Of a stretch of DNA of 64,000 bases, positions 1 to 27,436 are shown piece after piece. Origin of the DNA: a virus (lineage: Duplodnaviria > Heunggongvirae > Uroviricota > Caudoviricetes). The position numbers and the translations under genes were made by a program. Positions within the stretch are counted from its first letter, which is position 1. The number at the start of each line of letters is the position of its first letter. The stretch lies in IMG/VR virus record IMGVR_UViG_3300027887_000330; one strand, 5' to 3'. The notes under the pieces were generated by a model. That model saw nothing but the letters and a program-made list of their open reading frames with translations, searched no databases and was not told the origin of the DNA.

Positions 1-232
1 AATACATAAGAAGGTATAAGGATGACAAGACCTCACTGACAGAAAATGAGAGGATCTCTTTGGGAGCCCATCTCTTAGTAAAAAATATCATTGAATTAGA
101 CATAATAGTCCGGGAGCGAAAGAATAGAGAAGATAAATGGCGGGAAGAGAGAAACAAGCTTTCTAAAGAGATCCCCAGGATGTCGGGTGCAGAGAAAGAG
201 AAGGCAATTAATAGGGTTAAGGAGTTAAAATC

Positions 233-1012
233 ATGGATGCAATCGTCATCTGCGGTGGACAAGGCACAAGAGTCAGAGAAATAACGAAGGACGAAATCCC
301 AAAGATACTGATAAAGGTTAATAGGAAACCCTTCATAGAGCATCTGATAAACACTCTATATTCTCAAGGGGTTCGTAGAATCGTCTTTGCAGCAGGCTTC
401 AGGGGAGAAAAGATCAACGAATACCTAGAGCACAGAGGTGTTGATAGCAGCTGTATCCCCTGGCCCAGGATGTCAGTAGTGATAGAGAAAGAACCATTGG
501 ACACGGGGGGAGCGGTTCTCAATATCTTGAACAAATCTGGACTCGGGATACACAGCAACCCTTTCTTGGTGGTGAATGGGGATAGCCTGATCATTCCGGA
601 GAAGGGGGTTGATTGCTATGAGGAATTATATTATGAAGATACATATGGTCACCCCAGCTGCGCCATGTTTACGTGTAAAGTGGACAACGACGGGAGGTAT
701 GGCAGCTTAATTTTTGACGCGGACGGCTGGATATCTGAATTTAATTCAGCTAGGAAAAAGAAAAATTCATGGATTAATTGTGGGTGGTACATAATGCGGC
801 ATGAATTCTTTGATCATTATAGGAATCCAATTTGTAACAGGGATAAAATACAGATCTATGATGTGGAGCGCATTTCTCTGGAAAGAGAGTTTTTTCCTAA
901 TCATCTGGAACAGGGAGAAGTGATCAAACCAATAGCGATAGATCAAGAACAGTTCCTAGAGATAGGAACGCCGGAGGCGTTAGCAGAGACTAGACAAAAA
1001 TTAAAGAGGTAA
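233..1012 (+). CDS. hddC: Sugar-1-phosphate nucleotidyltransferase, HddC-like (D-glycero-D-manno-heptose 1-phosphate guanylyltransferase)
   Basis: N-terminal GGxGTR-type motif (ICGGQGTRV) typical of NTP_transferase fold. It lies directly upstream of a GHMP kinase and a GmhA isomerase, which is the gene content of the GDP-heptose pathway. Confidence 0.55.
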   Translation: MDAIVICGGQGTRVREITKDEIPKILIKVNRKPFIEHLINTLYSQGVRRIVFAAGFRGEKINEYLEHRGVDSSCIPWPRMSVVIEKEPLDTGGAVLNILNKSGLGIHSNPFLVVNGDSLIIPEKGVDCYEELYYEDTYGHPSCAMFTCKVDNDGRYGSLIFDADGWISEFNSARKKKNSWINCGWYIMRHEFFDHYRNPICNRDKIQIYDVERISLEREFFPNHLEQGEVIKPIAIDQEQFLEIGTPEALAETRQKLKR

Positions 1013-1016
1013 TAAT

Positions 1017-2009
1017 ATGATAGTATCGAGTTGTCCGACCCGCATTAGTTTAGGGTCAGCAGACCATCATCCATTCGCTGAGCGGTTCGGTGGAATAGCA
1101 TTAAATTTCTGTATTGATAAGAAGATATACGTAATAATACGTAAACGCACGAGGCTAGAGAAAGAAAAGTTTCGAATAAGTTATTCTAAGACGGAACTTT
1201 GTAGCAGTGTGGACGACATAACATTAGACCCAGTGCGTGAGGCATTAAAGATGGTGGGACTAGACACTCCACTGGAAATCATTTATGCCTCAGATGTCCC
1301 CGCCCGGCTAGGCCTGGCTACCAGTAGTGCATTCATCCTAGCTCTACTAAAGGGTCTATACTATCTTAGGAATACCTCTGTATCCCCTGAGATACTAGCG
1401 GAGAAAGCCTTCACGTTAGAGAGGGAGCTATTGAAACAGGCAGGGGGATTTCAGGATCATTACATAGGCTGGGGTGGCATTAACTTTCTTAGGGGCTCTC
1501 CTCATAGAGTAACCAGGGAAGCAATAGTCCTAACTCCTGAGCAGATAAGAGAATTTGAAAATCACTTCTTTCTTATTTACACCGGGGACCAGGGGGATTC
1601 AGAGAAGATACTTCCCGAGCAGCTAGAAAAGTTAGCTAGGGGAAAAACCCTGGATGACACAATCAAAATAAAATCCTTGGTGCACGAGATGTATTCTGCC
1701 ATGTTAAAACCTACATTTCATCCCATGGATTTAGCAGTCTACATGAATGAACAGTGGGAGCTTAAAAAGAAACTATCCACTACCATGACTAACCCTGTTA
1801 TAGACCATATCGAGCAAGCAGTTAAGGGGGCGTGCCCCCAATCAGGTATCAGGCTTATAGGAAGCGGTGGACGCGGCTTTATGCTGGTTTTAGTGCCACA
1901 AGAAATGAGAGATAAACTGATAGAGGCTCTACCAGGTTTTAAGACAGCCACCTTTTCGATAGACCAAGAGGGCTGCAGGGTAACAGGACATACATTTTTA
2001 GGAGCATAA
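1017..2009 (+). CDS. hddA: GHMP-family sugar kinase, HddA-like (D-glycero-D-manno-heptose 7-phosphate kinase)
   Basis: GHMP kinase phosphate-binding motif (PARLGLATSSAF). About 330 aa. Flanked by a nucleotidyltransferase and a phosphoheptose isomerase. Confidence 0.55.
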   Translation: MIVSSCPTRISLGSADHHPFAERFGGIALNFCIDKKIYVIIRKRTRLEKEKFRISYSKTELCSSVDDITLDPVREALKMVGLDTPLEIIYASDVPARLGLATSSAFILALLKGLYYLRNTSVSPEILAEKAFTLERELLKQAGGFQDHYIGWGGINFLRGSPHRVTREAIVLTPEQIREFENHFFLIYTGDQGDSEKILPEQLEKLARGKTLDDTIKIKSLVHEMYSAMLKPTFHPMDLAVYMNEQWELKKKLSTTMTNPVIDHIEQAVKGACPQSGIRLIGSGGRGFMLVLVPQEMRDKLIEALPGFKTATFSIDQEGCRVTGHTFLGA

Positions 2010-2012
2010 GAA

Positions 2013-2666
2013 ATGAGCGGTGTTAATATTGGTATAGACCAAATGTTCAGAGAACGGAGAAAGCATATGCGAATTCAGATAAGAGATTGGGTACATGACT
2101 CAATGGTTCTAAAGCAGCAGATATATAACTCAGAGGCTGTGGTCACACAGATAACAGGTGCGGCACAGATCCTAATAGATGCTCTGTGTGTGCACGGACC
2201 CAAGATATTAGTATGCGGAAACGGCGGGAGCAGCTCTGATTCGGCCCATTTTGTTGGAGAGCTTATGAATAGATTCACTCTCCTAAGAGACTACCCACTG
2301 CCTGCTATAGATCTGTCTGCCATGAATAGTACCATAACCGCCATAGCAAATGACTACTCTTTTGAGGAGATCTTTGCAAAACAGGTGAGGGCCCTCGGGA
2401 ATGAAAATGATGTACTCTTTGCGATAAGCACTAGCGGAGCCTCCAGCAACATCATTAGAGCTATAGAGGTGGCGTGGCTCAAAGATATGCATGTCATACT
2501 ACTCACGGGCAATATGAATGATTTCTACAAATGCTACCGTCCGGAAGAGGGTTATGTGCACCAGATAAGGGTTCCCTCAACTGAGACTCCGTTAATACAA
2601 GAGGCACATATAATGATAATTCACTTGCTCTGCAAGCTAATAGATACAGCGCTGGAGGAGGATTAA
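2013..2666 (+). CDS. gmhA: SIS-domain phosphoheptose isomerase (sedoheptulose 7-phosphate isomerase)
   Basis: GNGGSSSDSAHFVGEL matches the GmhA GNGGSxxDAxH signature. Length 217 aa. SIS fold pattern. Confidence 0.7.
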   Translation: MSGVNIGIDQMFRERRKHMRIQIRDWVHDSMVLKQQIYNSEAVVTQITGAAQILIDALCVHGPKILVCGNGGSSSDSAHFVGELMNRFTLLRDYPLPAIDLSAMNSTITAIANDYSFEEIFAKQVRALGNENDVLFAISTSGASSNIIRAIEVAWLKDMHVILLTGNMNDFYKCYRPEEGYVHQIRVPSTETPLIQEAHIMIIHLLCKLIDTALEED

Positions 2667-2675
2667 GGAGAGGAT

Positions 2676-3698
2676 ATGTTTGATAAAATTTTACACATGC
2701 TAGAGGGCAAGAAGAAGCCCTCCTATCAAGACAGACTACAGAGCATACACGAGTTTTTTACCAAGTATGACCTGTACAAAGAGATGTGGCCAAAACAGCC
2801 GGACACCCCACTTTCTATAGTGTGGGCTGTGGGTACCCATTTCCCTGAGATATTTATGCAGCAGCTAGGGTCTTTCATGCAGTTTGATAATATCTTTCAC
2901 CCGGAAGATGACATCATCTTTGTGGCGGACGTCGAGAGAAAAGCAGACATAGTAACTAGCAAGTTTATGACCAAGAGCCTGCAGACACGGGGAGTAATAG
3001 TTAAGAGGCCACACCCTGGGGACGGCCCCGCCCTTAACTGGGACGTAGGTATGGATTATGCAAAACATGATCGGGTTCTCCTGATACGAGACTTAGGGCT
3101 ATTCTTTAATCCGTGGCACATGCTTTCAGAGGCTAGGTCTGTTAATATAGACAAGTCTCTGTACAACTTCAGCACAGTCCTGGGGCCAGTGTGGTCCCGC
3201 TTCTCCGATAGGTGGCTATACCTGGTACACCCAAGATTTGCCCCCAACCCATTTCTATTTTCTCTAGTGCTGAGTAAGGCCGATTACCTGTCAATGAATG
3301 GTTTTGATACAATACTGAGCCGGGGCTTTGATCACACGGGGGAGCTAGATTTCCTATTACGTTGGAATATGAAAGGCTACTCGTATGTTATGAGCGAAGA
3401 GGCACATGTATTCCACCCAGGAATATCAGCTAACTCTCAAGAAGAGCTCAATGAGATGCAATTCCAGTCTTCCATAAACAGGCGATACTTCTTTGATAGA
3501 TACGGAGAAAGCTTTATCAACGGACTCAAGCCTCCATATAAATCAGACATAAATATGATAGAAGTAAATCATGCGCTTACCTATGACCCTCTATCCGAAG
3601 TCATACTGGATGATTTTGACGAACAGCTAGAAGAAGTCAAGGACGCGTTCACCTTTAATAAATGGTACCATGAGAACTTGGTGCAGGAGGTTTTATGA
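2676..3698 (+). CDS. Hypothetical protein
   Basis: 340-aa ORF with good start context (GGAGAGGATATG), coupled to the upstream gene. No recognisable motif. Confidence 0.5.
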   Translation: MFDKILHMLEGKKKPSYQDRLQSIHEFFTKYDLYKEMWPKQPDTPLSIVWAVGTHFPEIFMQQLGSFMQFDNIFHPEDDIIFVADVERKADIVTSKFMTKSLQTRGVIVKRPHPGDGPALNWDVGMDYAKHDRVLLIRDLGLFFNPWHMLSEARSVNIDKSLYNFSTVLGPVWSRFSDRWLYLVHPRFAPNPFLFSLVLSKADYLSMNGFDTILSRGFDHTGELDFLLRWNMKGYSYVMSEEAHVFHPGISANSQEELNEMQFQSSINRRYFFDRYGESFINGLKPPYKSDINMIEVNHALTYDPLSEVILDDFDEQLEEVKDAFTFNKWYHENLVQEVL

Positions 3699-4288
3699 CT
3701 CTCAGAGAGCCTACCCCTGTCCAGAGAGTAGGCGCTGAACAGATCGGAAGATCATTCACGGAGACCAAGGTCTGTAGTAAGTGCGGGGACGAGAAATCCA
3801 TAGACGACTTTAATATACGGGGCAGACGAGGGGCCAGTAAGCTAAGAAATGTATGTAAGAAATGTCAGAAGATTTACGAAGAAAAAATTAAACCTCGAAG
3901 GAGACAGCGTTATCTGGATAATAAGGATGAAATATTACAAAAATGTAAGAACTATAGGCATAAAAACAGGGAAGAGATCTCGCGAAGGCGGGCGTTACGA
4001 AGGGAAGAGTTTAATATAACTGTTCACCTTTATTACAATGGGTGTTGTTTCATATGTGGTGTTACTGATAGCTGTCACGAAATGTACGACTGTCACCACA
4101 TAGACCCTTCTATAAAAGATTGGAATATCTCTAAAGCATACGCCTCTCCGTGGGATACGGTAGTTATTCCAGAACTTGAAAAATGTATTTATCTGTGCTC
4201 TAATTGCCATAGAAAGTTACACGGCCATAGGTTTGATGAACAAATTAAAACAGGCGAGCTAGTCTTAGTGCCTGGGAGGAAAACATAA
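3695..4288 (+). CDS. HNH endonuclease with N-terminal CxxC zinc fingers (probable homing endonuclease)
   Basis: CSKCGD...CKKCQ zinc-ribbon pairs, then DCHHIDP...CSNCHRKLHGH, a classic HNH motif. Confidence 0.65.
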   Translation: MTLREPTPVQRVGAEQIGRSFTETKVCSKCGDEKSIDDFNIRGRRGASKLRNVCKKCQKIYEEKIKPRRRQRYLDNKDEILQKCKNYRHKNREEISRRRALRREEFNITVHLYYNGCCFICGVTDSCHEMYDCHHIDPSIKDWNISKAYASPWDTVVIPELEKCIYLCSNCHRKLHGHRFDEQIKTGELVLVPGRKT

Positions 4289-5301
4289 TGGATATATGTG
4301 GCTATTTAGCCGTTTGTGAACCTATTTCAGGAAGATTGCCAATACAGGAATGTATTGAAGCGCTTTACGATCATTTAGATTCTTTCGTAGTCTATGACTG
4401 CAGCAAATACGATAGGTTAGATCTATCTAAGTATGGAAAGGTTAAGAAACACGTCAGAGGTGTCTTCAATTGTTTTGATAATCCCTTTGGCTCGATGTTT
4501 ACGCAGGCTTTAAACTTAACAGATTCGGAGTATGTTATGTTTATTGATGGGGATGAATTGTTTGAATTTAAGTCTTCTAGTTTGAAAGATATAATTAAAC
4601 GCTATCCTATGCAACCAGGTGTAGGTGTAGCTTTTAGCCTCAAAAATTATTATTGCAGTAGAAATTTTATAATAGATGGTTGCAGCAGTAAAGGAGCCCA
4701 TGTATTTAAAAAAACCCCGGAACTTGCCCATGACTCATTACAGGGCTTCTGGCAGCACCGTAGCCGAATCCGTAGGACCAATAATGACCCGGACGGCTGT
4801 GACGGGGTACGTCTGTGTAATGAGAGTTGTCAGCCCGCCATGCATTATCCTCCGATCCCGCTAGAAGAGGTGGTGGTCCACCATACTTCGCACCTGGACT
4901 TGGCTGGCAAGATGGTGAGAAGTGTATTACAGTACAATCATACCAGCACTCTAGATCTGATGGATTTCTTTCCAGTGGATATGAGGCTGAGGCCAGAGCT
5001 AGTAGAGAAGATCTACAGCTTGCAAGTAAAAGAAATAGAAAATGGGGATGTTAAATTATACGGAAAGCCCGTTCCTATCGTCTACGAGGGGAACAAATAC
5101 GTAGATGCATTTGTCCAACGATATAACATAAAGGAATTCAATCCTACAAAAGTAAAAGACTACGAGAATTGGAAAGACATCGACACTATTGCATGTGACA
5201 CAGATGTAGATGGAGGAAAAGATGGCGAAAGCATCGAACGGGCTGAGGCCGTGGAGCCTGAGCCCAACGTGCATCAAGACATTCAACCAATGTCTTCTTA
5301 A
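4288..5301 (+). CDS. Hypothetical protein, possible GT-A-like glycosyltransferase
   Basis: MFIDGDELFEF resembles a DxD nucleotide-sugar binding motif. Located next to the heptose-nucleotide genes. Weak call. Confidence 0.3.
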   Translation: MDICGYLAVCEPISGRLPIQECIEALYDHLDSFVVYDCSKYDRLDLSKYGKVKKHVRGVFNCFDNPFGSMFTQALNLTDSEYVMFIDGDELFEFKSSSLKDIIKRYPMQPGVGVAFSLKNYYCSRNFIIDGCSSKGAHVFKKTPELAHDSLQGFWQHRSRIRRTNNDPDGCDGVRLCNESCQPAMHYPPIPLEEVVVHHTSHLDLAGKMVRSVLQYNHTSTLDLMDFFPVDMRLRPELVEKIYSLQVKEIENGDVKLYGKPVPIVYEGNKYVDAFVQRYNIKEFNPTKVKDYENWKDIDTIACDTDVDGGKDGESIERAEAVEPEPNVHQDIQPMSS

Positions 5302-6382
5302 GTACTGGTATCAGTATATTAAGAAAGAGAAGGGGATAGAAGATTCTGTGCCCCTTCGTTTTGGTACTACAGTCCACAGCGCCTTAGAAGAACTGGGGCG
5401 AAGACTTCACAGCGGAGAGCCACTGACCGTGGAGCTCTGTGAAGAGGTGGCGCAGATGGTACCAGCGTTTGCAGCTCAGAATCAGATAGATGATGCTGAG
5501 TTAATAAAAGAGGGACAGCAATTTGTCAGGGAGCGTTACTACAAACACAACCCTGAATACAAAGTTGTAAAGACAGAGTTGAGTTTCTTCAAGATGAAAC
5601 TTACTACTGATCAGGGTGTCCCCCTTAATGGGGTTATCGACTTACTAATGCAGATGGACCCCACCACAGCTATTGTGTTAGACTATAAGACCTCACGCAA
5701 GGCGGACACAGTAGCAGAAGCCAAGGTAGATATTCAGCTATCCATGTACGACTACATGATCTCTAAACTCTACCCGCAGTACACCCATATTTGGCTGGTC
5801 CTGGACTTCCTACGAAGCGAGTCTGTTATATCAGACCGAACGATTGAGGAAAGAAAGAACTTTGAGTCATGGCTTAATGGCTTATGGGTGACGATGGGGA
5901 ATATGACAGAGAAGGACGTGGTTGCTTCAGTGAATGAGTACTGTCCTTGGTGTAAGTACAGGCACATGTGCCATGAGTATGAATCGCTTTTAAAAGACGA
6001 CCTAAAGCTAAAGCCCATGATGGTCATCACAGACCCGGCCGAGTTCGCCGCTGAATGGAGATTAGCTAAAGTATTGGAGAGGGCAGCCGAGGGTCGTTTA
6101 CACGAACTCAAGTCTTGGGCAGATAAGAAAGTTGCCATGGAGGGTTTAGTTCAGTTCGAGGATGACAAGTCGATTGTGTCCTGGGGACAAGGGTCTAGAA
6201 AATTCTACGATCCTAACGCCTTGGTAGGACACATTCCGTCAACAGATCTAGCTAGATTAATTTCTTTCAAGAACAAAGATCTTGAAAATTATTCTCACAC
6301 CAGACCGGACCTAAGGCCTTTGATAGAGAGAGCTTCTAGAACAAGTCCTGGGGCCCCACGAATAACTATGCGTAATAAGTAA
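5210..6382 (+). CDS. PD-(D/E)XK nuclease, Cas4/RecB-family with C-terminal Cys cluster
   Basis: VIDLL...VLDYKTS core (D...D/ExK). C-terminal CPWCKYRHMC (CxxCx5C) plus N-terminal Cys, as in Cas4-like Fe-S exonucleases. Confidence 0.6.
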   Translation: MEEKMAKASNGLRPWSLSPTCIKTFNQCLLKYWYQYIKKEKGIEDSVPLRFGTTVHSALEELGRRLHSGEPLTVELCEEVAQMVPAFAAQNQIDDAELIKEGQQFVRERYYKHNPEYKVVKTELSFFKMKLTTDQGVPLNGVIDLLMQMDPTTAIVLDYKTSRKADTVAEAKVDIQLSMYDYMISKLYPQYTHIWLVLDFLRSESVISDRTIEERKNFESWLNGLWVTMGNMTEKDVVASVNEYCPWCKYRHMCHEYESLLKDDLKLKPMMVITDPAEFAAEWRLAKVLERAAEGRLHELKSWADKKVAMEGLVQFEDDKSIVSWGQGSRKFYDPNALVGHIPSTDLARLISFKNKDLENYSHTRPDLRPLIERASRTSPGAPRITMRNK

Positions 6383-6486
6383 TAGTTCACTTTTTGATCA
6401 AAGAAATCACACGGTTATATGACCCAAACCTCTCTGGAATTAGCTAAGCAAGTTAGTTCTAGAGAGGCTTTAATTCAGGAGAGGCT

Positions 6487-8436
6487 TTGAATAGTTATCA
6501 ATCACAAAGCGTTGAAAAGCTAGAAATTCCGTATCGGTTCTTACAGACTAATAATGAAATATGGGAAGCTTTTGTAGAGATACTTAAAGCCCCGTTAAGG
6601 CCTATGGATACAGAGACAACAGGCTTGGACCCACATACGGTCCAGCTGTTGCTCTTACAGATAGGAACGGGCGCTATGAATTATGTCATAGACATGACGG
6701 CTAACAATGCCCTAGCTCGGAAGGATAAAGATGCCCCGATCTGGAAGATGGCTATCGACATATTCACCGACTCAGCAACTAAAATTTTTCACAATGCAGC
6801 CTACGACTTTAAAATAATTAAAGCCCACTTCGATTGTGAAGTTACTAATATTTATGATACAATGATAGCTGAGAGGCTGCTCACCGCCGGTAAGTTCGCG
6901 AAGAAGCACGCGAATCTGGCTGAGTTGGCGACCAAGTATGCAGGAATCTCTGTTCAAGAGATGAACAAATCCATTAGAGCTGGTTTTTATGCTGGTTACG
7001 TGCTAGATAAGTTTTCTGATGACCAGATACTTTATTCTGCCAGGGATATACATGTACTTCTCCCTATTTATTGGGCCCAGATCAGCCAATTAATGGAAGA
7101 AAACCTTATACCTACGGCGGCCCTGGAGTTCTCAGTAGTACCGGTAACAGCCAGTATGGAATATGTTGGAGTTAATTTTGACACTGATAAGTGGGTCCAG
7201 GCCGTAGAGGAATTGGATGTTGAGAGACTACAGAAACGACGAGAAGTAGAAGGGATTTTTAAGAGCAGCGGGCTAGAAAAGCAGAAATCCCTGTTTAATG
7301 ATTTCTGCACAATCTCTATAGATAGTCCAGCCCAGCTATTAAAGGCTTTGAAGCAGTTAGGTATACCCTTGGAGGATTCAACCAACAGTGGTATCTTAGA
7401 GAGGATGATTAACGACTATCCAATCCTGGAGCCATTGCTCAAATACCGGGAGCACCAAAAGCTGGTTACATCCTTTGGAGAAAGTCTTTTAGACAGACTC
7501 AATTCGGTGACAGGCAGACTTCACGGAAGCTTCATGCAGATAGGTGCTGACACTGGTAGATTTAGTGCTCGCGACCCAAACCTGCAGCAGATCCCTAGCG
7601 ACCAGAAGTGTTCTTTGCGAGATTGCTTTATACCTCCAGAAGGTTATGTAGCTTTAGGTGCGGACTATTCTCAGCAAGAACTTAGGGTGTTAGCCTGTAT
7701 CAGTGGGGAACCCAACATGCTCTTAGCCTACTCACAGAATGAAGACTTGCATACTGTGACCACGGCGTTCTTATTTAAACGGGGCGTAGAAGAACTTAAA
7801 GCTCTGTTGAAATCTAGGGACGAGAAACTAAAGGCAAAGAAATTTGATCTCGTTACTGATGAGGAAAAAGAAGCCGTCAGACAAAGAGCTATTGCTAAGT
7901 CCATTAACTTCTTGATAGCTTACGGAGGTACATACAAAAGGCTGGCTTACACGGCCCGTATAACTGAAGACTTTGCTAAGGAAGTTATGGATAATCACGG
8001 CGCGTCTTTCCCACGTCTTAAAAACTTCATTAAGGTAGAGGGGGATCGCACGCTGCGCAACATGTATAGTCAGACCGTGCTGGGGCGCAAGAGATACTAT
8101 ATACTTCCAGACCGCAGCGATCCTGACTACGGTAAAAGAGAAGCAGGATTAAAACGACAGGGAGTTAATCATATTATACAAGGAACCAGCGCTGACATTA
8201 CTAAACAGGCCCTGGTCTACATTGACAAGAGATTTACAGAAAGGTTTGGAAGGCAGAACGCGTATATATGGGCCGTTATACACGATGAAATACAAACTAT
8301 GGTTAAGGCGGAGATAGTCGAAGAGGCCGGTCACCTACTAACAAGTAGTATGGAAGAGGCCTACTATAAATTCATACCACAAGAAGTGTGTCCCATTAAG
8401 GTAGATGCACAGTCGGGCCCGCACTGGGTCCATTAA
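6487..8436 (+). CDS. DNA polymerase I (family A) with 3-5 exonuclease domain
   Basis: Exo I motif DTETTGLD. Motif A LGADYSQQELRVLA. Motif B RQRAIAKSINFLIAYGG. Motif C VIHDEIQ. Confidence 0.9.
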   Translation: MNSYQSQSVEKLEIPYRFLQTNNEIWEAFVEILKAPLRPMDTETTGLDPHTVQLLLLQIGTGAMNYVIDMTANNALARKDKDAPIWKMAIDIFTDSATKIFHNAAYDFKIIKAHFDCEVTNIYDTMIAERLLTAGKFAKKHANLAELATKYAGISVQEMNKSIRAGFYAGYVLDKFSDDQILYSARDIHVLLPIYWAQISQLMEENLIPTAALEFSVVPVTASMEYVGVNFDTDKWVQAVEELDVERLQKRREVEGIFKSSGLEKQKSLFNDFCTISIDSPAQLLKALKQLGIPLEDSTNSGILERMINDYPILEPLLKYREHQKLVTSFGESLLDRLNSVTGRLHGSFMQIGADTGRFSARDPNLQQIPSDQKCSLRDCFIPPEGYVALGADYSQQELRVLACISGEPNMLLAYSQNEDLHTVTTAFLFKRGVEELKALLKSRDEKLKAKKFDLVTDEEKEAVRQRAIAKSINFLIAYGGTYKRLAYTARITEDFAKEVMDNHGASFPRLKNFIKVEGDRTLRNMYSQTVLGRKRYYILPDRSDPDYGKREAGLKRQGVNHIIQGTSADITKQALVYIDKRFTERFGRQNAYIWAVIHDEIQTMVKAEIVEEAGHLLTSSMEEAYYKFIPQEVCPIKVDAQSGPHWVH

Positions 8437-13459: not shown

Positions 13460-13695
13460 TGGAATGGATAGTTATTTTTCTGGGTGTATTTTGTATTTAT
13501 TTGTTTAGCAGATGCAGGGAACTAGAAACTAAAATAGACGATGTAAACAAATACAGGGAAGACTGGGTTGACAACAACTTGAGGGCTCTGTATACTCAAC
13601 TGTATAATCATACGCACGATACAGCAACAGGCTATGTGGACAGAATGAGTGTAATGGACCGGCCTAAAGAGGAGGAGCCAGGTGGCAAGGTTTGA
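13438..13695 (+). CDS. Small membrane protein
   Basis: N-terminal hydrophobic helix IMEWIVIFLGVFCIYLF. 85 aa. Confidence 0.4.
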   Translation: MEKGEQIMEWIVIFLGVFCIYLFSRCRELETKIDDVNKYREDWVDNNLRALYTQLYNHTHDTATGYVDRMSVMDRPKEEEPGGKV

Positions 13696-14587
13696 ACGAG
13701 TAAAGGACAAGTGGAAAGACTTACGTAAGGATTTGTATGGTAATGTAGAGCCCGAGGTTACACTAGAGGCTATTACAATGCCCATAAAGATGGGCCTGGA
13801 CTACCCTCGGGGACCCCTTGATGCAGTCCACCAACAGATAATAAATAAGGATGTTGTTACAACGCCCTGTATTAAGGGATTTAATTTTGACTTTCAAGAG
13901 ATAGAAAAACTACCTGCATTAGCGGCGGGGGTAAGCTATGGAACCAAAGACAAACTGGAAAATGATTCCGATAAAGCTATTCAGCTCAATAAGAAGCTTA
14001 TTAAGATGGGTCACCTTACACCGCTTGAGTCGATCCAAATTAATTTTGGAATATCCGGAATTTCGAAGGCTTGTGGAGCACAGATCTCGCGGCACCGCAT
14101 CGGGCAAGGGCACACGAGTGTGAGTCGTAGATACAAGGAAGCTGAACCTTACTTTGTGTATCCTGCGCTGGGTTCTATTGATGATGAATCTGAAGCTTTA
14201 CAGATGCTGAAAAATTTAGAGGCTGCCTATGACGAGGCATTTGCTGACTACTCTCGCTTCAGGGATATACACAACTCCAGTGGTTATAAACACGTCATGA
14301 AGAAAGAAGATGCCCGCCTGGTCCTGCCTATATCCTATGCTACGGAACGAACGTGGTGGGTAAATGTCAGAGCACTTAGAGACTTTTTTCGTCTCCGTCT
14401 GGCTGCGGACGCGGAATGGGAGATACGAAGGTTGGCTTGGATGATGTATGATATAGTAGTCGGATTATTACCTAGTTTATTTGAGGATTTAACCAATGAA
14501 CCTAAGACAACTGTTGCTCGCAGTAATGACGATGATACTTTTCATCGGGGGATGCTCAGCCTCCTATCAGGACATCAGACGGTGTAA
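13682..14587 (+). CDS. thyX: Flavin-dependent thymidylate synthase ThyX
   Basis: ThyX signature RHRIGQGHTSVSRRY (RHRx7S...RY). GTG start preceded by GGAGGAG. Confidence 0.8.
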   Translation: MARFERVKDKWKDLRKDLYGNVEPEVTLEAITMPIKMGLDYPRGPLDAVHQQIINKDVVTTPCIKGFNFDFQEIEKLPALAAGVSYGTKDKLENDSDKAIQLNKKLIKMGHLTPLESIQINFGISGISKACGAQISRHRIGQGHTSVSRRYKEAEPYFVYPALGSIDDESEALQMLKNLEAAYDEAFADYSRFRDIHNSSGYKHVMKKEDARLVLPISYATERTWWVNVRALRDFFRLRLAADAEWEIRRLAWMMYDIVVGLLPSLFEDLTNEPKTTVARSNDDDTFHRGMLSLLSGHQTV

Positions 14588-16003: not shown

Positions 16004-16719
16004 CAGACAAAATCGAGAGCGGAAAGCCGATAACGGCTAAGAGTCTATATAATAAATTTGGTTTCAGACACGTTATAGGAGTTCACATATATGCACGGAG
16101 GGCCATAGCTGGTCCTATCTGTGTGGCTGCGGTCACTATAAGGCCTAATCATAAGTTTGATTTAAAAGATGTCAGCCAACTAAGCATGACAGACTGCTAC
16201 AAGTTGAATGATGCTATACGAAGGAAGGCTGACCTGCTTAATCTAGGGTGGGCTTCTGTTGATAGTATAAATAAGCTAGGCATACATGAAGCCATAATGT
16301 CAGCTATTAGGTCTGCCTTGATCGGGGTCTCGGAGTTTGACCCACCTAGTCTTTTATTCATTGATGGCTTCCAGATGGAACCGATGATCAATGGGCTTAG
16401 AGACTCCCAAACTCCGGTTATTGTAGTTAAAAAAGGAAAGGAACAAGTAGATGTCATAGCGGCAGCCAGTGTTGTCAGTAGGGTCGCTAGGGATAGTCTT
16501 ATGTCTTGGATGCACAAAGAATACCCCGAGTATGAGTGGGAACAAAATGAGGGCTTTGCTACACCAAGACACATACAGTTAATAAAGGAACACGGGATAA
16601 GCATTTACCATAGAGATTTGAGTAATGTAAAAGCATTAAAGGATTTCAGGGCTTTTCCCAATGAGCGGTGGAGGAAACAATATGAAGATAGTTATTTTGG
16701 CGAACGAGATTGGGGATAA
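15991..16719 (+). CDS. RNase HII homolog with degenerate catalytic residues (predicted inactive or repurposed)
   Basis: Clear RNase HII pattern (IAAASVVSRVARDSLM, FIDG, GFATPRHIQLIKEHGISIYHR). The DEVGRG catalytic box reads HIYARRA and the KGD box reads KKGKEQ. Confidence 0.65.
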   Translation: MGWITDKIESGKPITAKSLYNKFGFRHVIGVHIYARRAIAGPICVAAVTIRPNHKFDLKDVSQLSMTDCYKLNDAIRRKADLLNLGWASVDSINKLGIHEAIMSAIRSALIGVSEFDPPSLLFIDGFQMEPMINGLRDSQTPVIVVKKGKEQVDVIAAASVVSRVARDSLMSWMHKEYPEYEWEQNEGFATPRHIQLIKEHGISIYHRDLSNVKALKDFRAFPNERWRKQYEDSYFGERDWG

Positions 16720-17692
16720 ATTATGGCCCCTGACTAACGCCAAAAATCCCAAGGCCTTACTAGCCTTGTATAGTGAAAACTCTATGTTAGTTGAGACTAT
16801 TAGTCGTTGTCTACCTCTGTGTGTAAACAAGGGAAAAGATATCTACATAGTATCTACGGCTGAATCCAAGAAAGTAATCAGAGAACAAAAAATCCATCAG
16901 AAATTTGGTATACCCTTAAAGAATATAATAGACCTGTCCCCTAACACGGACGAACCAGCACTGATCATAGGAGAGATGGTTGAGGTATTTAGCCACCTGC
17001 CTGATGAAGAGTTAGTGTGTTTCGTTCCGTCGGACCAGTTTTATTGGCCAGAGGAGGGCTTTGTCTTTCATTTGAATAACACAGCTAAGGGAGCTGAGAC
17101 TAATCCTGATCACATCATGTTTATGTCTATGCTTCCTGGGATGCCTGCTGGTAGTATGAATTACATTAATGTAGACTGGAAAAAAGATAGCACCGTAGGT
17201 ACAGTCTTTGATGCCCCCACGGAGAGCGGTACAAATACACTAAGCACCACTATGGTTTCTATCCTAGACTATCGCAGAGTATTGGATCCTGGTACAGCAG
17301 AGGAACTGGTACTTAAAAAGTGGCTATGGGATCTCAAAACCTGGGTATCTTATTTAAAGAATTTTAGGAAACATATCACGGGGGCTACTGATTTCTATGA
17401 AGAACTCTTGCCAAAACTTATACTAAAAGATGTGCTAAAGGCAACTATAGCTAACAAGGTAGTATGGTCAGTGTTAGATAATTGGGCAGCCCTAAAATAT
17501 CTTACTTATGATGCTGGTCTGTTTCCTGTTAAAGAAGACCCGAAGGTGCATACCATAGACGCTTCGGGTAATCTCGTTAAGAGAATCAGTGATAAAGAAA
17601 TAATACTTATAGGAGTTGAAGACTTGATTGTAGTAGAAACAGAAGACAAGCTATTGATCGCTACACCGGGGGGAGCGTATGAGCATCTATAA
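16661..17692 (+). CDS. Mannose-1-phosphate guanylyltransferase-like nucleotidyltransferase domain protein with degenerate G-loop
   Basis: KIVILANEIGDKLWPLTNAKNPKALLAL aligns to ManC [24 protein letters not shown]. C-terminal DLIVVETEDKLLIA matches the ManC DLVVVQTKDAVLIA. No cupin/PMI domain. Confidence 0.5.
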   Translation: MSGGGNNMKIVILANEIGDKLWPLTNAKNPKALLALYSENSMLVETISRCLPLCVNKGKDIYIVSTAESKKVIREQKIHQKFGIPLKNIIDLSPNTDEPALIIGEMVEVFSHLPDEELVCFVPSDQFYWPEEGFVFHLNNTAKGAETNPDHIMFMSMLPGMPAGSMNYINVDWKKDSTVGTVFDAPTESGTNTLSTTMVSILDYRRVLDPGTAEELVLKKWLWDLKTWVSYLKNFRKHITGATDFYEELLPKLILKDVLKATIANKVVWSVLDNWAALKYLTYDAGLFPVKEDPKVHTIDASGNLVKRISDKEIILIGVEDLIVVETEDKLLIATPGGAYEHL

Positions 17693-18344
17693 GCCCGAGT
17701 CCCGGGTAGCTTTTGACATTGATGGAATAGTATTAGATACTGCCACAGCTATATGGCGGGCGGTCACAAGTCATTATGACATACCAGCCTCGATAGAGTC
17801 GTGGAAAGAATATTACATAGAGAAACAGCTTGGTATTCCTCAGCAGGACCTGAGACCAGTTTATGAACCAGTGATGGCCAAGACAGATCTGCCTCTGTTG
17901 AAGGGTGCGGCCAGGGCCTTAAAAGCCTTTCATGAGGCTACTCAAGAGCCTATTTTATTCATCACTGCACGGAGACCCCAATTTGTAGCCAGTGCTGCGG
18001 CTTCTATACGAAGAGAACTTCCTGATATAGAACTAGAAATCATAGCAGCCTCGGAGTCAGCCGCTAGGCTAGGTGATAATAAAGGGCATGATAAGACTGA
18101 GTATCTAAAAAATCATGGTATTGAATTTTTTATTGATGACCACCCGCATTCATGGCAGAAATATGTTGACGCTGGGATAGTGGTTGGTACAATTGACTGG
18201 CCATGGACCAGGGAACTTGCCAAATCTATGAATAGGAAACGATTCATCATGTTCAAAGACTGGAAAGAAATCGGTGAGTTCTTATCCACGGGCCTGGCCG
18301 CAAAAAAGCTTTTTCAGGAACTAAGGGAGTTGCCTACATTATGA
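17679..18344 (+). CDS. HAD-superfamily hydrolase (possible sugar-phosphate or nucleotide phosphatase)
   Basis: N-terminal FDIDGIVLDT is HAD motif I (DxDG). About 220 aa. Confidence 0.5.
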   Translation: MSIYKPESRVAFDIDGIVLDTATAIWRAVTSHYDIPASIESWKEYYIEKQLGIPQQDLRPVYEPVMAKTDLPLLKGAARALKAFHEATQEPILFITARRPQFVASAAASIRRELPDIELEIIAASESAARLGDNKGHDKTEYLKNHGIEFFIDDHPHSWQKYVDAGIVVGTIDWPWTRELAKSMNRKRFIMFKDWKEIGEFLSTGLAAKKLFQELRELPTL

Positions 18345-18928
18345 ATAAGCAAGTATATAGACTAGCCTTCATGGGTAAAATGGGAGCAGGGAAATCAACG
18401 ATAGCTTTAGAAGCTCTGGGCCAGTTCGTAGCAAAATATACGACGGAGGATTCCATAGGCTACTTTATAAAGTTCGCTAACCCACTACACCAATGTGCCC
18501 TGGCGTTTCACCGCAGGGAGAAGCCCCGCACCTTTCTACAGAGATTAGGCGACTTGGGTCGAAGAGAATTTGGTGATGATGTGTTTGAGAAAATCTTTGA
18601 AGAAAACGTAGAAGGATTAATAACTAAGAAGGTTCCAGAGCTGGAGCAAAATAATATCCTTTTAATGACCGATGATTTAAGATTCATGGGTGAATATAAT
18701 CTAGTTAAAAGACTTGGATTCACTGTCGTAGCTGTTGAAGCCGATGAAGAGATACGTAAACAGCGCATCGGTCCTGCTTTTACTAATGTAAAGCATAGAT
18801 CAGAGATGGAGATGGAACAAATTACTCCAGACTTTGTCATAGATAACAATGAAGACGATCCCCACATGCTAGCCGTGAATTCTCAGCTAAGACAGATATT
18901 CAATGAACATAAATTAATAGGAGACTAG
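18341..18928 (+). CDS. P-loop NTPase, probable (deoxy)nucleoside monophosphate kinase
   Basis: Walker A FMGKMGAGKST. 195 aa. Nucleotide-metabolism neighbourhood. Confidence 0.5.
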   Translation: MNKQVYRLAFMGKMGAGKSTIALEALGQFVAKYTTEDSIGYFIKFANPLHQCALAFHRREKPRTFLQRLGDLGRREFGDDVFEKIFEENVEGLITKKVPELEQNNILLMTDDLRFMGEYNLVKRLGFTVVAVEADEEIRKQRIGPAFTNVKHRSEMEMEQITPDFVIDNNEDDPHMLAVNSQLRQIFNEHKLIGD

Positions 18929-22618: not shown

Positions 22619-23158
22619 ATGAAGTGGAGTGACCGCGAGCTGGGACATTTAAGAATGATTTTAGAGAGATATCAATCTCATTCTGTTCATGACATGTCCC
22701 AGCTTGCACATAAAACAATTAAGAGGAGATCCGCTAACGCTATAAGCCACAAGCTTCGAGAGTTAATTGCGGAGCAGGAATTCAAGGACGATCATATAGA
22801 AGTAAATGGAGTTGTATATCCTGCACAAGTAATTTCTGGATACGTAGTAATGACACTGCCGGACGGGATCATGTACCCGGCTCATATATTTGTATGGGAG
22901 AGTGAGTTTGGGCCGGTCCCCGTGGGCTATCACATCCATCATATAAACGGTAAGAGCTATGACAATAGGCTAAAAAACTTACAGCTGATGTCAGCCCCTG
23001 ACCATATTCGACTCCATACTTCAGGCCAACCCTCGGAAACTGCCATGTTATTTTGGTTCTTACAAGAACATAATATGTGGAGTAACTATCTGGATTACCG
23101 TAAGCAGATAATTGAATCAGACTGGTGTAATAAACCAAGGGAAGAAGGAACTGAATAA
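22619..23158 (+). CDS. HNH homing endonuclease
   Basis: GYHIHHINGKSYDNRLKNLQLMSAPDHIRLH HNH motif. Confidence 0.7.
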   Translation: MKWSDRELGHLRMILERYQSHSVHDMSQLAHKTIKRRSANAISHKLRELIAEQEFKDDHIEVNGVVYPAQVISGYVVMTLPDGIMYPAHIFVWESEFGPVPVGYHIHHINGKSYDNRLKNLQLMSAPDHIRLHTSGQPSETAMLFWFLQEHNMWSNYLDYRKQIIESDWCNKPREEGTE

Positions 23159-23568
23159 TGGAATGCTTAAACTGTCCGCACTGCGGACAACTATTAACGA
23201 CTGTTGAGACTCCGGTATTTTCGAAGTGGGGGGGAGTAGAACTGAACATATGTTTAAATGATTTTTGTGATTATTTTGCACGTTCATGGAAAATGCTATC
23301 TGAACAGTCTGGCTCGTGGTTAGGTTATCGTTATTTTCATGGAGAAAATGGCCAAGAAGGACCGATAGCAGTGGCCTCCGTGGACACTTTTAAAGACTCT
23401 ACTATTACTGAAGAAGAAAAGAAATCACGCCAGCAACGTGCCTATAATCGTGAGAAAGAATTTAGAAATTTATTAGAGGCTATCTCCTCCGCAGAGGAAA
23501 AAAAAGACTTACAATTGTCTGAGTGGCTTCAAGAGCTTAGGAAATTAAAATATCCTAATAAAACCTAA
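23158..23568 (+). CDS. Zinc-ribbon protein
   Basis: CLNCPHCG...CLNDFC pairs. Last gene of the plus block. Confidence 0.45.
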   Translation: MECLNCPHCGQLLTTVETPVFSKWGGVELNICLNDFCDYFARSWKMLSEQSGSWLGYRYFHGENGQEGPIAVASVDTFKDSTITEEEKKSRQQRAYNREKEFRNLLEAISSAEEKKDLQLSEWLQELRKLKYPNKT

Positions 23569-24490
23569 GGTTTTTCTTACGTTTTAAACCTAATTTAAAA
23601 GCTCTCATCTGTATACCAGACCAGTTACGGCCAGGGAGCTTTTTCATTAGGTCCTCCCTCAACATGATATCATAATTTTTTCTAAGGAGGTCGTCTTCGT
23701 GTGGCCTCCAAATACAATTATGAATAGGTTCAGGGTTGTCTATAATTTCCTTTGCTTTGGAGTGTTTTCTATCCATATATAAATTTGATCCTTCATAGAT
23801 ATATCTTAGGAAGTGCCACGCATCCCTACCAGAGTAAGTAACACACCATGAGGTCCCTGATTGAGTCACATTATAGTTATTTGCCCATACCTGTGAAAAA
23901 CATTGGTGTACGAAGGTAATCATTTGCTTATTTCCCGTTATATTTGCCTCCGGCCTATTGTGGTTTCTACCTCCCATTCTTACACACCCGTCACCGTCAA
24001 ACAGCCCCCTGATAAAGTGTCTAGTAAGTTCCGGAGGCAAGACCGGCGGGTTTACAACTTTGGATTTTTTTGGAATTATATTATAGGATGAAAGGCTTCG
24101 TAGCAATTCTGTATTATAGATACACAGCCCTTTTTGTGCCTTAGTATTTTTATACCCTCGTTTGTAACTAATAGGCGAGTCTGGGGAAGCTAGATTACGG
24201 ATTTTTATTAGTATGTCTTCGTCAGATTCCTGTAACCACAGGTTAATAGCTCGGTGATTTATACACCCATCAGCAGACCACATCCCTAATATATACGCTT
24301 TTTCTTCTGAATCAATCTTAGAGAAATCCAAGACTACTTTTCTAGGGACTCTTTTCTGCAAGCTATGTCGACTTATTTTATTTCGAATTGCTATAATGTC
24401 CCGTCTTGGTAGTAGTTTACATAAATCAGGGCCTTCCATATTTGGATAGTTATCTTCTAAAATTTTGAGCTCCTCTTTTGACCAACGCAT
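23555..24490 (-). CDS. LAGLIDADG homing endonuclease (double-motif)
   Basis: YILGMWSADGCI and FIRGLFDGDGCV, two LAGLIDADG blocks. Confidence 0.8.
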   Translation of the reverse strand: MRWSKEELKILEDNYPNMEGPDLCKLLPRRDIIAIRNKISRHSLQKRVPRKVVLDFSKIDSEEKAYILGMWSADGCINHRAINLWLQESDEDILIKIRNLASPDSPISYKRGYKNTKAQKGLCIYNTELLRSLSSYNIIPKKSKVVNPPVLPPELTRHFIRGLFDGDGCVRMGGRNHNRPEANITGNKQMITFVHQCFSQVWANNYNVTQSGTSWCVTYSGRDAWHFLRYIYEGSNLYMDRKHSKAKEIIDNPEPIHNCIWRPHEDDLLRKNYDIMLREDLMKKLPGRNWSGIQMRAFKLGLKRKKNLRFY

Positions 24491-27180: not shown

Positions 27181-27435
27181 TTACCACTCCTTGTTTTCTA
27201 CCATCCTAACAATTTCCTCTACAGGAAGCTGCTTGTGGTCTTTGTAATCCTGTATTGCTCCCTCAATTTCATTTGTTATCCTGACGAGATCTGGTGTCAA
27301 GTGCTGTCCGTCATCATCCTCGTAGTTAGCGGCACAACGTATAAGGCGGCGGGCTTCTTTCAAGGATTTCAGGGCATCCAGTATCACGTAGGAACTTGAA
27401 CTTGAGTTCGTTATATGTTTTGGTCGATAAAGCAT
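27181..27435 (-). CDS. MFYR-family paralog 5 (start MLYRPKHITNSSSSSY)
   Basis: Internal Met gives the conserved N-terminus. The track ORF has a 17-codon upstream extension. Confidence 0.5.
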   Translation of the reverse strand: MLYRPKHITNSSSSSYVILDALKSLKEARRLIRCAANYEDDDGQHLTPDLVRITNEIEGAIQDYKDHKQLPVEEIVRMVENKEW

Positions 27436-27436
27436 C

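Follow-up and report, generated by a model that had tools for sequence, protein, structure and literature searches.

Six adjacent reading frames near the start of a 64,000-nucleotide stretch of viral DNA (the window) are best explained as the central part of a glycosylation module that a large uncultured phage encodes. Three of these genes, judged from their sequences, very probably direct the synthesis of a nucleotide-activated heptose (NDP-heptose), and two others, p4 and p6, are identified by sequence and structure comparison as soluble, virus-only GT-A glycosyltransferases, separated from each other by an HNH endonuclease gene. We consider it likely that p4 and p6 are both active and use the product of the trio. 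Our best explanation of the whole, in which the heptose trio, the two transferases and tailoring enzymes serve a non-DNA acceptor, probably a phage or virion protein, is put forward tentatively.

Organization of the locus

An ORF check of positions 233–5301 returned six reading frames, all on the plus strand (Table 1), which are separated by gaps of 4–10 nt or joined by overlapping start and stop codons; promoter and terminator signals show no excess inside the cluster, and the packing is operon-like. The window edge cuts through the cluster; upstream of it are SDRs and a TylF methyltransferase, whose families suggest that the heptose is further modified.

Table 1. Genes of the glycosylation module and two further genes of the window considered with it
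Feature	Position	Strand	Length	Basis
HddC-like nucleotidyltransferase	233–1012	+	259 aa	
HddA/WcbL-like GHMP kinase	1017–2009	+	330 aa	
GmhA isomerase	2013–2666	+	217 aa	
p4, virus-only GT-A (remote GT2) glycosyltransferase	2676–3698	+	340 aa	
Free-standing HNH endonuclease gene	3695–4288	+	197 aa	
p6, GT-A glycosyltransferase	4288–5301	+	337 aa	
ManC-like nucleotidyltransferase, degenerate signature motif	16661–17692	+		Pfam, NCBIfam matches
HAD-superfamily phosphatase, phrog_420 (function unknown)	17679–18344	+		HAD motifs

Three enzymes of heptose activation

An earlier note on this DNA had claimed an hddC, hddA and gmhA gene content, and this is upheld at the level of best matches: the best PDB match of each enzyme is an enzyme of the GDP-heptose pathway, and in NCBIfam the isomerase, kinase and nucleotidyltransferase have GmhA, HddA and HddC/ManC, respectively, as their best models or close to them. 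In particular, the sequence of the isomerase identifies it as GmhA, the sedoheptulose-7-phosphate isomerase, whose catalytic and metal-binding residues it conserves. It matches SIS_2 (E 1.3e-18), scores higher against the NCBIfam phosphoheptose isomerase model (194 bits, E 2e-57) than against DiaA (145 bits), aligns over its full length with Pseudomonas aeruginosa GmhA in the PDB (1x92, 2e-43), and differs from DiaA (HFAASM, TRG and N) in keeping the GmhA residues HFxxE, TSG and the final His.

[quoted passage not shown] It matches GHMP_kinases_N (E 3e-10) and phrog_34407 (E 2e-31), its top NCBIfam model is HddA (82.6 bits), and its four best PDB matches are heptose kinases (2e-26 to 2e-14; among them WcbL of Burkholderia pseudomallei 4usm, 2e-26; 3k85, 4e-22; Campylobacter jejuni 4n3o, 2e-14), with fucokinase about 60 bits lower. 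The GHMP phosphate-binding motif (motif II) is partly divergent (PARLGLATSS vs the consensus PAGSGLGSSS). The nucleotidyltransferase carries a GGQGTR signature at residues 8–13 and matches Pfam NTP_transferase (E 1.4e-14); its closest PDB structure is HddC of Yersinia pseudotuberculosis (6jq8, E 2.5e-18), with GDP-mannose pyrophosphorylases next, and in NCBIfam the mannose-1-phosphate guanylyltransferase model (106 bits) comes slightly before HddC (96.9 bits).

Since all three enzymes score below the NCBIfam equivalog cut-offs (300 bits for HddC, 600 for HddA and 276 for phosphoheptose isomerase), we infer the substrate specificity of the trio from these similarities. Low scores of this kind, the lead of the mannose model, the loss of the isomerase from two relatives and the analogous enzyme classes of phage arabinose pathways (PMC13326640) would also accommodate a trio that makes another activated sugar (GDP-mannose, another NDP-hexose or an NDP-pentose), the heptose labels then reflecting family-level similarity. 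We regard this as improbable, given that the isomerase is of the GmhA type and not the KdsD/API type, that the kinase and the nucleotidyltransferase both find heptose enzymes as their nearest structures, and that chance would hardly lead the independent best matches of three neighbouring genes to a single pathway. For the heptose made by the trio, GDP would be the likely carrier; we favour it because an upstream SDR of 346 aa is GDP-L-fucose-synthase-like (194 bits) and the best models of the nucleotidyltransferase are guanylyltransferases.

The locus resembles the cellular GDP-heptose pathway in having candidates for three of its four enzymes, adjacent and co-oriented, and resembles the GDP-heptose tailoring systems of C. 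jejuni (PMC10680097) in its neighbouring SDRs, one of them GDP-fucose-synthase-like. It differs from the cellular pathway in lacking GmhB, in its scores below the equivalog cut-offs, in being phage-encoded within a replication module and not within a capsule or O-antigen locus, and in its virus-only transferases.

The missing 7-phosphatase

The HAD-superfamily gene of Table 1 had been proposed in the earlier note as a possible gmhB. We find no support for this assignment: similarity to GmhB was undetectable, the Pfam search came back empty, and the only matches, weak ones, are to the class B acid phosphatase AphA (E 0.0017 in NCBIfam and 0.5 in the PDB). The protein has the HAD motifs FDIDGIV, FITAR and FIDDH, and its gene is translationally coupled to the ManC-like nucleotidyltransferase gene and a P-loop kinase-like ORF, 15 kb from the cluster. 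That second nucleotidyltransferase (Pfam NTP_transferase E 4e-8 and ManC_GMP_beta-helix E 4e-6; NCBIfam GMP_PMI 56 bits), in which the degenerate signature motif reads ILANEIGDKLWPLT, has an uncertain tie to the heptose cluster.

A GmhB-like ORF was found neither in the cluster nor in the 5.7 kb preceding it, nor in the loci of the relatives examined; one relative (L005) has a 242-aa ORF of no matching family between its SIS and GT2 genes. The lack of a candidate GmhB in the relatives examined, together with the absence of GmhA from two of them, fits reliance on host enzymes. A published summary (PMC11461863) of the work of Tang et al. on virus-encoded NDP-beta-D-manno-heptose enzymes reports that these are functional and that the phosphatase step is absent from the viral pathways described there. 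The viral enzymes of that account are of the HldE/HldC type (beta; ADP, CDP or UDP), whereas the GHMP kinase and HddC-type enzyme considered here would belong to the alpha/GDP branch.

Two virus-only glycosyltransferases and a probably mobile HNH gene

The earlier note had taken the last ORF of the cluster for a possible transferase and had proposed a search for glycosyltransferase folds in both p4 and p6; p6 proves to be a glycosyltransferase, and both proteins have a single GT-A Rossmann-like alpha/beta/alpha domain with an acidic DxD-type motif, less canonical in p4. In p6 the motif is D87-x-D89, with D87, D89 and E90 (FIDGDELF) invariant after a beta-strand, and the C-terminal 37 residues are acidic and predicted to be disordered. 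In p4 an invariant D139 follows the strand at 133–138, a GFD...GELD...RW pattern resembles the GT2 catalytic-base region, and the link of its profile to GT2 proteins is remote (E 1e-6 to 1e-4). Neither protein has a Pfam match at E≤0.01 or passes the PF00535 gathering threshold, and PF00535 is found in only two of 38 relatives of p6.

The top structural match of p6 is the peptide glycosyltransferase SunS, and its sole PDB profile match is the flagellin glycosyltransferase GmaR (E 0.18, not significant), which are weak hints of a protein acceptor; the best structural matches of p4 include the polysaccharide polymerases K4CP and GlfT2 and the cellulose and hyaluronan synthases. No membrane-spanning or strongly hydrophobic segment was found in p4 or p6. 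Apparently these are proteins of a restricted distribution: a pattern-seeded scan of 185,579 reference prokaryote genomes did not find p4, about 11 strong clusters represent it among 1.84 billion proteins, and tblastn with p4 and p6 gave no match in 50,697 deposited phage records.

The gene between them matches phrog_2255 ('HNH endonuclease', E 1.4e-24) and, weakly, a Pfam AI2M-like HNH family; its C-terminus has CxxC pairs and an HNH motif, C(S/A)NCHRKLH, and it overlaps p4 with its start codon and p6 with its stop codon. At the p4/p6 junction such a gene occurs in the window and in L005, occurs twice in L001 and is absent from L013 and a 210-kb relative, a sporadic presence as expected for a mobile element. 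We therefore regard it as a probable mobile insertion, with homing cleavage putative. This retains the mobile character given to the gene in the earlier note and shifts its position: since p4 is also GT-A, the insertion separates two transferase genes and not the sugar cluster from its transferase.

Relatives and genomic neighbourhood

The module is conserved, down to 45% identity, in a clade of large metagenomic phages whose contigs range from 72 kb to 545 kb or more, and the match lists of p4 and p6 are linked by at least 17 contigs of shared size. Kinase, p4 and p6 occur together in the relatives, accompanied by the nucleotidyltransferase wherever the locus extends far enough upstream and usually by GmhA, and the loci hold as many as about six GT domains besides sulfotransferases and O-methyltransferases; a CTP_transf_like ORF was seen in the 545-kb relative only. 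All relatives examined have the module embedded among genes of replication and nucleotide metabolism, with RNase HII upstream and PD-(D/E)XK, PolA, RNR and ThyX downstream. The window itself encodes ThyX and UDG, with a dNMP-kinase-like ORF and a HAD nearby, and no structural genes were found in its 64 kb.

Phage heptose clusters are not new at the level of annotation. In tblastn the kinase matches genes that bear the annotation 'D,D-heptose 7-phosphate kinase' in two phages, Cr30 of Caulobacter (KF301602) and SynMITS9220M01 of Synechococcus (MT408532), both of which have annotated heptose clusters of predicted function, where the kinase and a phosphoheptose isomerase adjoin a GT2-type glycosyltransferase and SDR epimerases; SynMITS9220M01 additionally has nucleotidyltransferases and a methyltransferase. 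The present module differs from both in its kinase (only 27–33% identity), its phage lineage and its genomic neighbourhood.

The acceptor of the sugar

By analogy with the capsid and tail-tube glycans described for mycobacteriophages by Freeman et al. 2023 (cited in PMC12619734) and the autonomous glycosylation of giant viruses (PMC4691112), we suggest a phage or virion protein as a possible acceptor, the foremost of those considered. Virion-glycosylation systems likewise combine viral GT-A, sugar-nucleotide and methyltransferase genes, which act there in the cytoplasm on structural proteins; the phage studied here has its structural genes outside the window, which therefore offers no candidate glycoprotein.

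Alternatively, though this seems to us rather unlikely, GDP-heptose and the transferases may act on the envelope of the host, changing its LPS, capsule, S-layer glycan or some other polymer, so that superinfection is blocked or progeny do not re-adsorb to infected cells and debris. In cells, homologues of the trio do work in the synthesis of capsule, O-antigen and S-layer glycans (PMC10680097; PDB entries for WcbL and HddC), and the cyanophage analogue has been termed a set of 'heptose-related lipopolysaccharide synthesis' genes (PMC7378029). The polymerase-like structural matches of p4 point in the same direction, whereas its absence from the prokaryote genomes scanned and its few protein clusters are not what one would expect had the phage recently acquired such enzymes from envelope pathways of its host. 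Non-structural and presumably early neighbours would suit superinfection exclusion; yet p4 and p6 are without membrane-spanning segments, and no flippase, polymerase, ligase or GtrA/B-type gene was found in this locus or in those of the relatives. Known seroconversion systems are, moreover, prophage-borne, whereas the 64-kb window showed neither an integrase nor any other gene for lysogeny. An acceptor other than protein, host glycan or DNA is less likely still.

Phage DNA had also been named as an acceptor in the earlier note. Here p4 and/or p6 would place heptose on a modified base (a 5-hydroxymethyl- or 5-hydroxy-pyrimidine) and thereby block host nucleases. As in the T4 alpha/beta-GT, MT-5mYOX-GT and arabinosyl-hmC/hoC clusters, sugar activation and glycosyltransferases (including GT-A) stand among replication genes, T4 a-gt and b-gt lying in a comparable region. 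Phage GT-A DNA glycosyltransferases exist, and the arabinosyl pathways share isomerase, kinase, HAD and nucleotidyltransferase classes with the present locus (PMC13326640), near which the dNMP-kinase-like ORF and HAD also lie. Heptose itself can go onto DNA, as in the reconstituted heptosyl-5hmC of 'contig 53' (an MT-5mYOX-GT cluster), and E. coli carrying a metagenomic phage cluster formed mono- and di-heptosyl-5mC derivatives (bioRxiv 10.1101/2023.12.21.572611). That published system takes a different heptose route, through a HAD-APH fusion, a cytidylyltransferase and a GT-B enzyme.

We nevertheless consider DNA an improbable acceptor, since the window ORFs scanned include no enzyme for base hydroxymethylation and the DNA strongly avoids hexamer palindromes, in contrast to the known DNA-glycosylation clusters. 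A Pfam scan of approximately 45 ORFs of the window returned no ThyA-family hydroxymethylase or hydroxylase, TET/JBP or C5-methyltransferase; the upstream 5.7 kb has none of these among its precomputed Pfam labels, and ThyX and UDG point to ordinary thymine. As an indirect test, resting on the expectation that DNA broadly shielded from type II restriction is under little selection against palindromic sites, hexamer palindromes in the window gave a median O/E of 0.82 vs 1.00 (MWU p 2e-11, six absent), with O/E <0.5 for 13 of 63 palindromic hexamers vs 14 of 4032 non-palindromes. The same analysis of the glucosyl-hmC phage T4 as a control showed far less depletion (p 0.02), and at equal length the 20 lowest hexamers include one palindrome in T4 and ten in the first 50 kb of the window; motif-specific or partial modification would be compatible with such avoidance. 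Additionally, the highest-ranking fold matches of p4 and p6 include no proteins resembling T4 beta-GT or JGT (TarP ranks 8th for p6 and 32nd for p4), and the GT domains, sulfotransferases and O-methyltransferases of the relatives exceed the needs of any known DNA glycan. The charge of p4 and p6 (pI about 5.1–5.5) is a weak argument, given that T4 alpha-GT is also mildly acidic (pI 6.1).

A proposed pathway

[quoted passage not shown] The upstream SDRs and TylF-type methyltransferase may then turn GDP-heptose into a modified form, e.g. one that is 6-deoxygenated and/or O-methylated. Within the infected cell's cytoplasm, p4 and p6 would transfer the sugar or sugars to a non-DNA acceptor, most likely a phage, and probably a virion, protein, with precursors of host envelope glycans as the next candidates.

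The probable heptose pathway genes

The six ORFs that the earlier note had named are all present on the + strand, and its reading of the first three as a GDP-heptose pathway proves essentially right, their best PDB matches being HddC, the heptose kinase WcbL and GmhA. For the nucleotidyltransferase (NTP_transferase E 1.4e-14) the top NCBIfam models are mannose-1-P guanylyltransferase (106 bits) and HddC (96.9 bits), and the top PDB match is Yersinia pseudotuberculosis HddC (2.5e-18), with GDP-mannose pyrophosphorylases next. The top NCBIfam model of the GHMP kinase is HddA, and its top four PDB matches are all heptose kinases, including Burkholderia WcbL (2e-26), Bacteroides 3k85 and Campylobacter 4n3o, with fucokinase about 60 bits below them. 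The isomerase matches phosphoheptose isomerase (NCBIfam E 2e-57) and P. aeruginosa GmhA (2e-43), and retains HFxxE, TSG and the terminal His, positions that differ in DiaA, a non-catalytic GmhA paralogue. Since all three scores fall under the NCBIfam equivalog cut-offs, we infer substrate specificity; nevertheless, that three adjacent genes each match one pathway is strong evidence at the sequence level for an NDP-heptose product, most likely GDP-heptose, and the cluster is predicted to belong to the alpha/GDP-type heptose branch. PHROGs holds families for all three proteins, annotated as of unknown function.

Features of the window and of the sequence adjoining it
Feature	Position	Strand	Basis or remark
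TylF-type methyltransferase, three SDR epimerase/dehydratase-type genes, DUF5662, RNase HII	upstream of position 1 (in L002 and L003)		
HddC-like nucleotidyltransferase	233-1012	+	NTP_transferase, GGQGTR
HddA-like GHMP kinase	1017-2009	+	NCBIfam and PDB matches
GmhA-type SIS isomerase	2013-2666	+	NCBIfam and PDB matches
p4 glycosyltransferase	2676-3698	+	AlphaFold model, remote GT2 profile link
HNH endonuclease	3695-4288	+	phrog_2255
p6 glycosyltransferase	4288-5301	+	AlphaFold model, D87-x-D89-E90
Hairpin	6429-6467	+	17-bp stem, weak T tail; between PD-(D/E)XK exonuclease and PolA genes
ThyX	13682-14587	+	~70-aa N-terminal extension ahead of Thy1 domain
Three overlapping ORFs: ManC-like nucleotidyltransferase, HAD phosphatase, P-loop kinase-like	16661-18928	+	degenerate nucleotidyltransferase signature ILANEIGDKLWPLT; HAD at 17679-18344
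Homing-endonuclease-like gene	22619-23158	+	HNH_3
Homing-endonuclease-like gene	23555-24490	-	LAGLIDADG_3
MFYR paralogues	25720-28605 and 36731-37592	-	~10 small tandem genes
PARP-like protein, 467 aa	42740-44143	-	WGR, PARP regulatory, PARP catalytic domains (Pfam E 2.5e-11, 4.7e-12, 2.3e-22)
Homing-endonuclease-like gene	54735-55400	-	weak HNH_3
Six tRNA genes	59651-62391	-	Ser-TGA, Leu-GAG, Pro-TGG, Leu-TAA, Leu-CAA, Leu-TAG
TROVE/Ro60-like protein, 480 aa	60793-62235	-	vWA domain

Nothing supports the proposal that the HAD protein supplies the GmhB step. It carries HAD motifs and no similarity to GmhB, its weak matches are to class B acid phosphatase AphA only (NCBIfam E 0.0017; PDB E 0.5), its PHROG has no assigned function, and its gene lies 15 kb from the cluster, translationally coupled to two others. 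It could conceivably act as a sugar phosphatase, and the three overlapping ORFs may form a second sugar- or nucleotide-activation module, in which the ManC-like nucleotidyltransferase may be inactive. Since no GmhB candidate was seen in the cluster or in any relative's locus examined, the simplest inference is that the 7-phosphatase step comes from host GmhB; a report on viral beta-heptose enzymes likewise describes the phosphatase as missing from viruses (PMC11461863).

Neighbours within the six-ORF block are separated by 4–10 nt or overlap, the HNH ATG sharing ATGA with the p4 stop and the HNH stop sharing TAATG with the p6 ATG. Given this packing, and since consensus promoter and terminator matches within the block show no excess over shuffled sequence, its genes look co-transcribed. 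The first strong hairpin lies 3' of the downstream exonuclease gene, and might serve in regulation or processing at the end of a glycosylation/exonuclease transcription unit.

Two virus-only glycosyltransferases and a probably mobile HNH gene

Where one possible transferase had been proposed, p6, the block appears to encode two: p6 is indeed a glycosyltransferase, and so is p4. The GT fold expected of them is borne out by confident GT-A models built by AlphaFold from family alignments (pTM 0.83 and 0.82), although PDB profile searches returned no significant match for either (for p6 only GmaR, E 0.18) and a BFVD fold search gave generic GT-A matches only. Neither protein matches any model in Pfam, NCBIfam or PHROG; both are acidic and lack hydrophobic segments, and both families are small and metagenome-only (at 90% identity, 36 clusters for p4 and 38 for p6). 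In p6, D87-x-D89-E90 is invariant, and two relatives have a precomputed PF00535 match. An exhaustive search of 1.84 billion representatives with the p4 profile gave 25 matches at E<=1e-3 and 11 at E<=1e-10; given so few matches, and since the ten weak outliers that were scanned all prove to be genuine GT2 proteins, p4 is best regarded as a remote, very isolated GT2 offshoot.

No p4 relative was found in 185,579 prokaryotic species, one genome each, in a pattern-seeded search that very divergent relatives could escape. Against 50,697 phage records, neither a DNA near-identity search with positions 1-6500 nor tblastn with p4 and p6 gave a match, nor did a single-sequence scan of IMG/VR with p4; alignment-based scans of viral and metagenome collections found only two to three loci apiece. 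The locus context of relatives comes mainly from exact-protein look-ups.

The HNH gene (phrog_2255, E 1.4e-24) had been taken for an insertion separating the pathway genes from the one transferase. Its sporadic, mobile-like occurrence at one site stands, and that site lies between the two transferase genes. It is absent from the p4/p6 junction of the 210-kb relative and of contig L013, whose junction alignment lacks an ORF of about 590 bp; contig L005 has a single HNH gene there (26% identity to the window copy), and the 545-kb relative has two copies, one closely like the C-terminal half of the window copy. Such sporadic occupation supports a mobile homing endonuclease. Three further homing-endonuclease-like genes lie in the window, and the 545-kb relative has two LAGLIDADG-like ORFs, judged by sequence only, within its glycosyltransferase cluster; the lineage appears rich in mobile endonucleases.

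Extent and conservation of the cluster

The cluster extends beyond the bounds first given to it, for the window edge cuts it: two contigs, L002 and L003, match the window without a difference across the compared stretch (window position = L002 position minus 5713) and carry SDR and TylF-type methyltransferase genes further upstream. One of these SDRs is GDP-L-fucose-synthase-like (194 bits), a family that acts on GDP-4-keto-6-deoxy sugars; this likeness supports GDP as the sugar carrier and suggests additional modification of the heptose, which might yield a 6-deoxy or O-methyl sugar, for instance. Such tailoring of heptose is seen in Campylobacter capsule pathways (PMC10680097).

As far out as relatives of 45% identity (contigs of 72, 83, 154 and 210 kb and one of 545 kb or more), the core is flanked by RNase HII and by PD-(D/E)XK exonuclease/PolA/RNR/ThyX. 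It consists of the nucleotidyltransferase, in every locus reaching far enough upstream, the GHMP kinase, usually GmhA, and then p4 and p6; the absence of GmhA from two relatives fits a host already making heptose-7-P. Distant relatives gain a third Pfam GT2, a GT2–GT1 fusion of about 800 aa, more methyltransferases, and sulfotransferases. The Pfam GT2 adjoining p4 in relatives was considered as the p6 homologue and rejected, being a third glycosyltransferase, with the true p6 homologue further downstream. In the 545-kb IMG/VR contig (L001), the p4 homologue is immediately preceded by a 183-aa cytidylyltransferase-like (HxGH) ORF at 6128-6679. This ORF is similar to the kind of nucleotidyltransferase found in beta-heptose (HldC) or CDP-glycerol pathways, a hint that a second nucleotide-sugar route may operate in some relatives.

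No structural gene is recognisable across positions 1-64000, and since 64 kb lack them the window is a fragment of a large phage, probably one much larger than its 78.7 kb contig. Its replication, repair and accessory genes encode PolA, class II RNR, ThyX, UDG, RNase HII, NAD-dependent ligase, Rad52-like, helicase, DHH, denV-like glycosylase, ClpB-like AAA, papain-like peptidase, radical SAM, SPFH, HD, GP88, PARP-like and Ro60-like proteins. The eukaryote-like poly(ADP-ribose) polymerase architecture of the PARP-like protein is unusual for a phage. Leucine isoacceptors account for four of the six tRNAs, and the tRNA genes flank that of the Ro60-like protein. In L013 (19765-20629) gene calling gives ThyX as a pair of ORFs, one of 199 aa and one of 98 aa.

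What is glycosylated

Our best guess, by analogy with mycobacteriophage and giant-virus glycosylation, is that the acceptor would be a phage protein, probably of the virion. Mycobacteriophage capsid and tail-tube proteins are reported to be glycosylated (cited in PMC12619734), and giant viruses have autonomous glycosylation (PMC4691112). The nearest structural neighbour of p6 is SunS, and both SunS and GmaR, the latter at a non-significant E of 0.18, glycosylate polypeptides; these matches are weak hints of a protein acceptor, and the rich tailoring toolkit of the relatives also fits one. We tentatively suggest that large phages of one clade, from sediment and freshwater, make a heptose glycan of their own with virus-only GT-A enzymes and attach it to virion proteins; the glycan may be deoxygenated and O-methylated and, in certain members of the clade, also sulfated. 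The Ser-rich MFYR paralogues, which the earlier note offered as acceptors, begin M(F/Y)YRxKFVTNSSS(S/T)SF and continue into a hydrophobic segment; Pfam gives no match to them, and they have only five homologue clusters, unannotated, among 5.8 billion proteins.

It is rather unlikely that the heptose is destined for host surface glycans, even though the cellular homologues of the three enzymes serve such glycans and the counterpart genes of a cyanophage have been read as host-surface (LPS) related: the cluster comes without components for membrane association or export, lysogeny genes were not seen, and p4 and p6 are virus-only.

DNA is an improbable acceptor. The position of the cluster in a replication region does resemble that of a-gt and b-gt among the replication genes of T4, and phage GT-A DNA glycosyltransferases and heptosyl-5hmC have already been demonstrated; however, a scan of about 45 ORFs turned up no enzyme that could make an acceptor base, genes for ThyX and a UDG are present, and hexamer palindromes are strongly depleted in the window (median O/E 0.82 vs 1.00, MWU p 2e-11). 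An O/E below 0.5 is seen for 13/63 palindromes vs 14/4032 non-palindromes, GTAC has an O/E of 0.59, and ATCGAT, CGATCG, CGTACG, CTCGAG, GCCGGC and GGCGCC are absent from the whole window. For T4, the sole control (50 kb), the same statistic gives p 0.02, with 1 of the 20 lowest hexamers palindromic, against p 5e-6 and 10 of 20 at equal window length. Restriction sites being thus selected against, the DNA is by implication largely exposed to restriction, and the host population exerts heavy type II restriction on the phage; motif-specific DNA modification may exist alongside this avoidance. The net charge of p4 and p6 was down-weighted as an argument against DNA binding because T4 alpha-GT, the control, has a pI of 6.1. 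Less likely than the virion-protein reading is the variant in which the enzymes place heptose on DNA by a route without a known acceptor-base enzyme.

Relation to known systems and significance

To our knowledge, phage sugar-nucleotide pathways with glycosyltransferases are widespread, and their target is almost never assigned. Phage heptose clusters of the present kind are already known at the level of annotation: in Caulobacter phage Cr30, annotated heptose kinase and isomerase genes adjoin GT2 and epimerases, as here, and cyanophage SynMITS9220M01 has a larger version of that cluster, described, without experiment, as host-acquired LPS-related genes (PMC7378029). Functional viral enzymes have been reported for the beta-heptose (ADP/CDP/UDP) branch (PMC11461863), whereas the window cluster is apparently of the alpha/GDP type. 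As predicted from its genes, it comes with two unannotated virus-only glycosyltransferase families and is conserved across a clade of large phages from the environment.

Existing ideas are not overturned by the cluster; the locking of heptose genes to two virus-only transferase families across a clade offers a compact, testable five-protein system. Were the virion the target, the glycan shielding shown to date in mycobacteriophages would be extended to large environmental phages and to a chemistry based on heptose. The phages would then have a 'glycocalyx' that could be likened to the fibril or capsid glycans of giant viruses, and theirs would be the first viral system for protein glycosylation to depend on GDP-heptose; if the target is DNA, a new hypermodification route would be added. 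Either target would bear on phage–host recognition, on immune recognition of therapeutic phages and on the sourcing of new heptosyltransferases.
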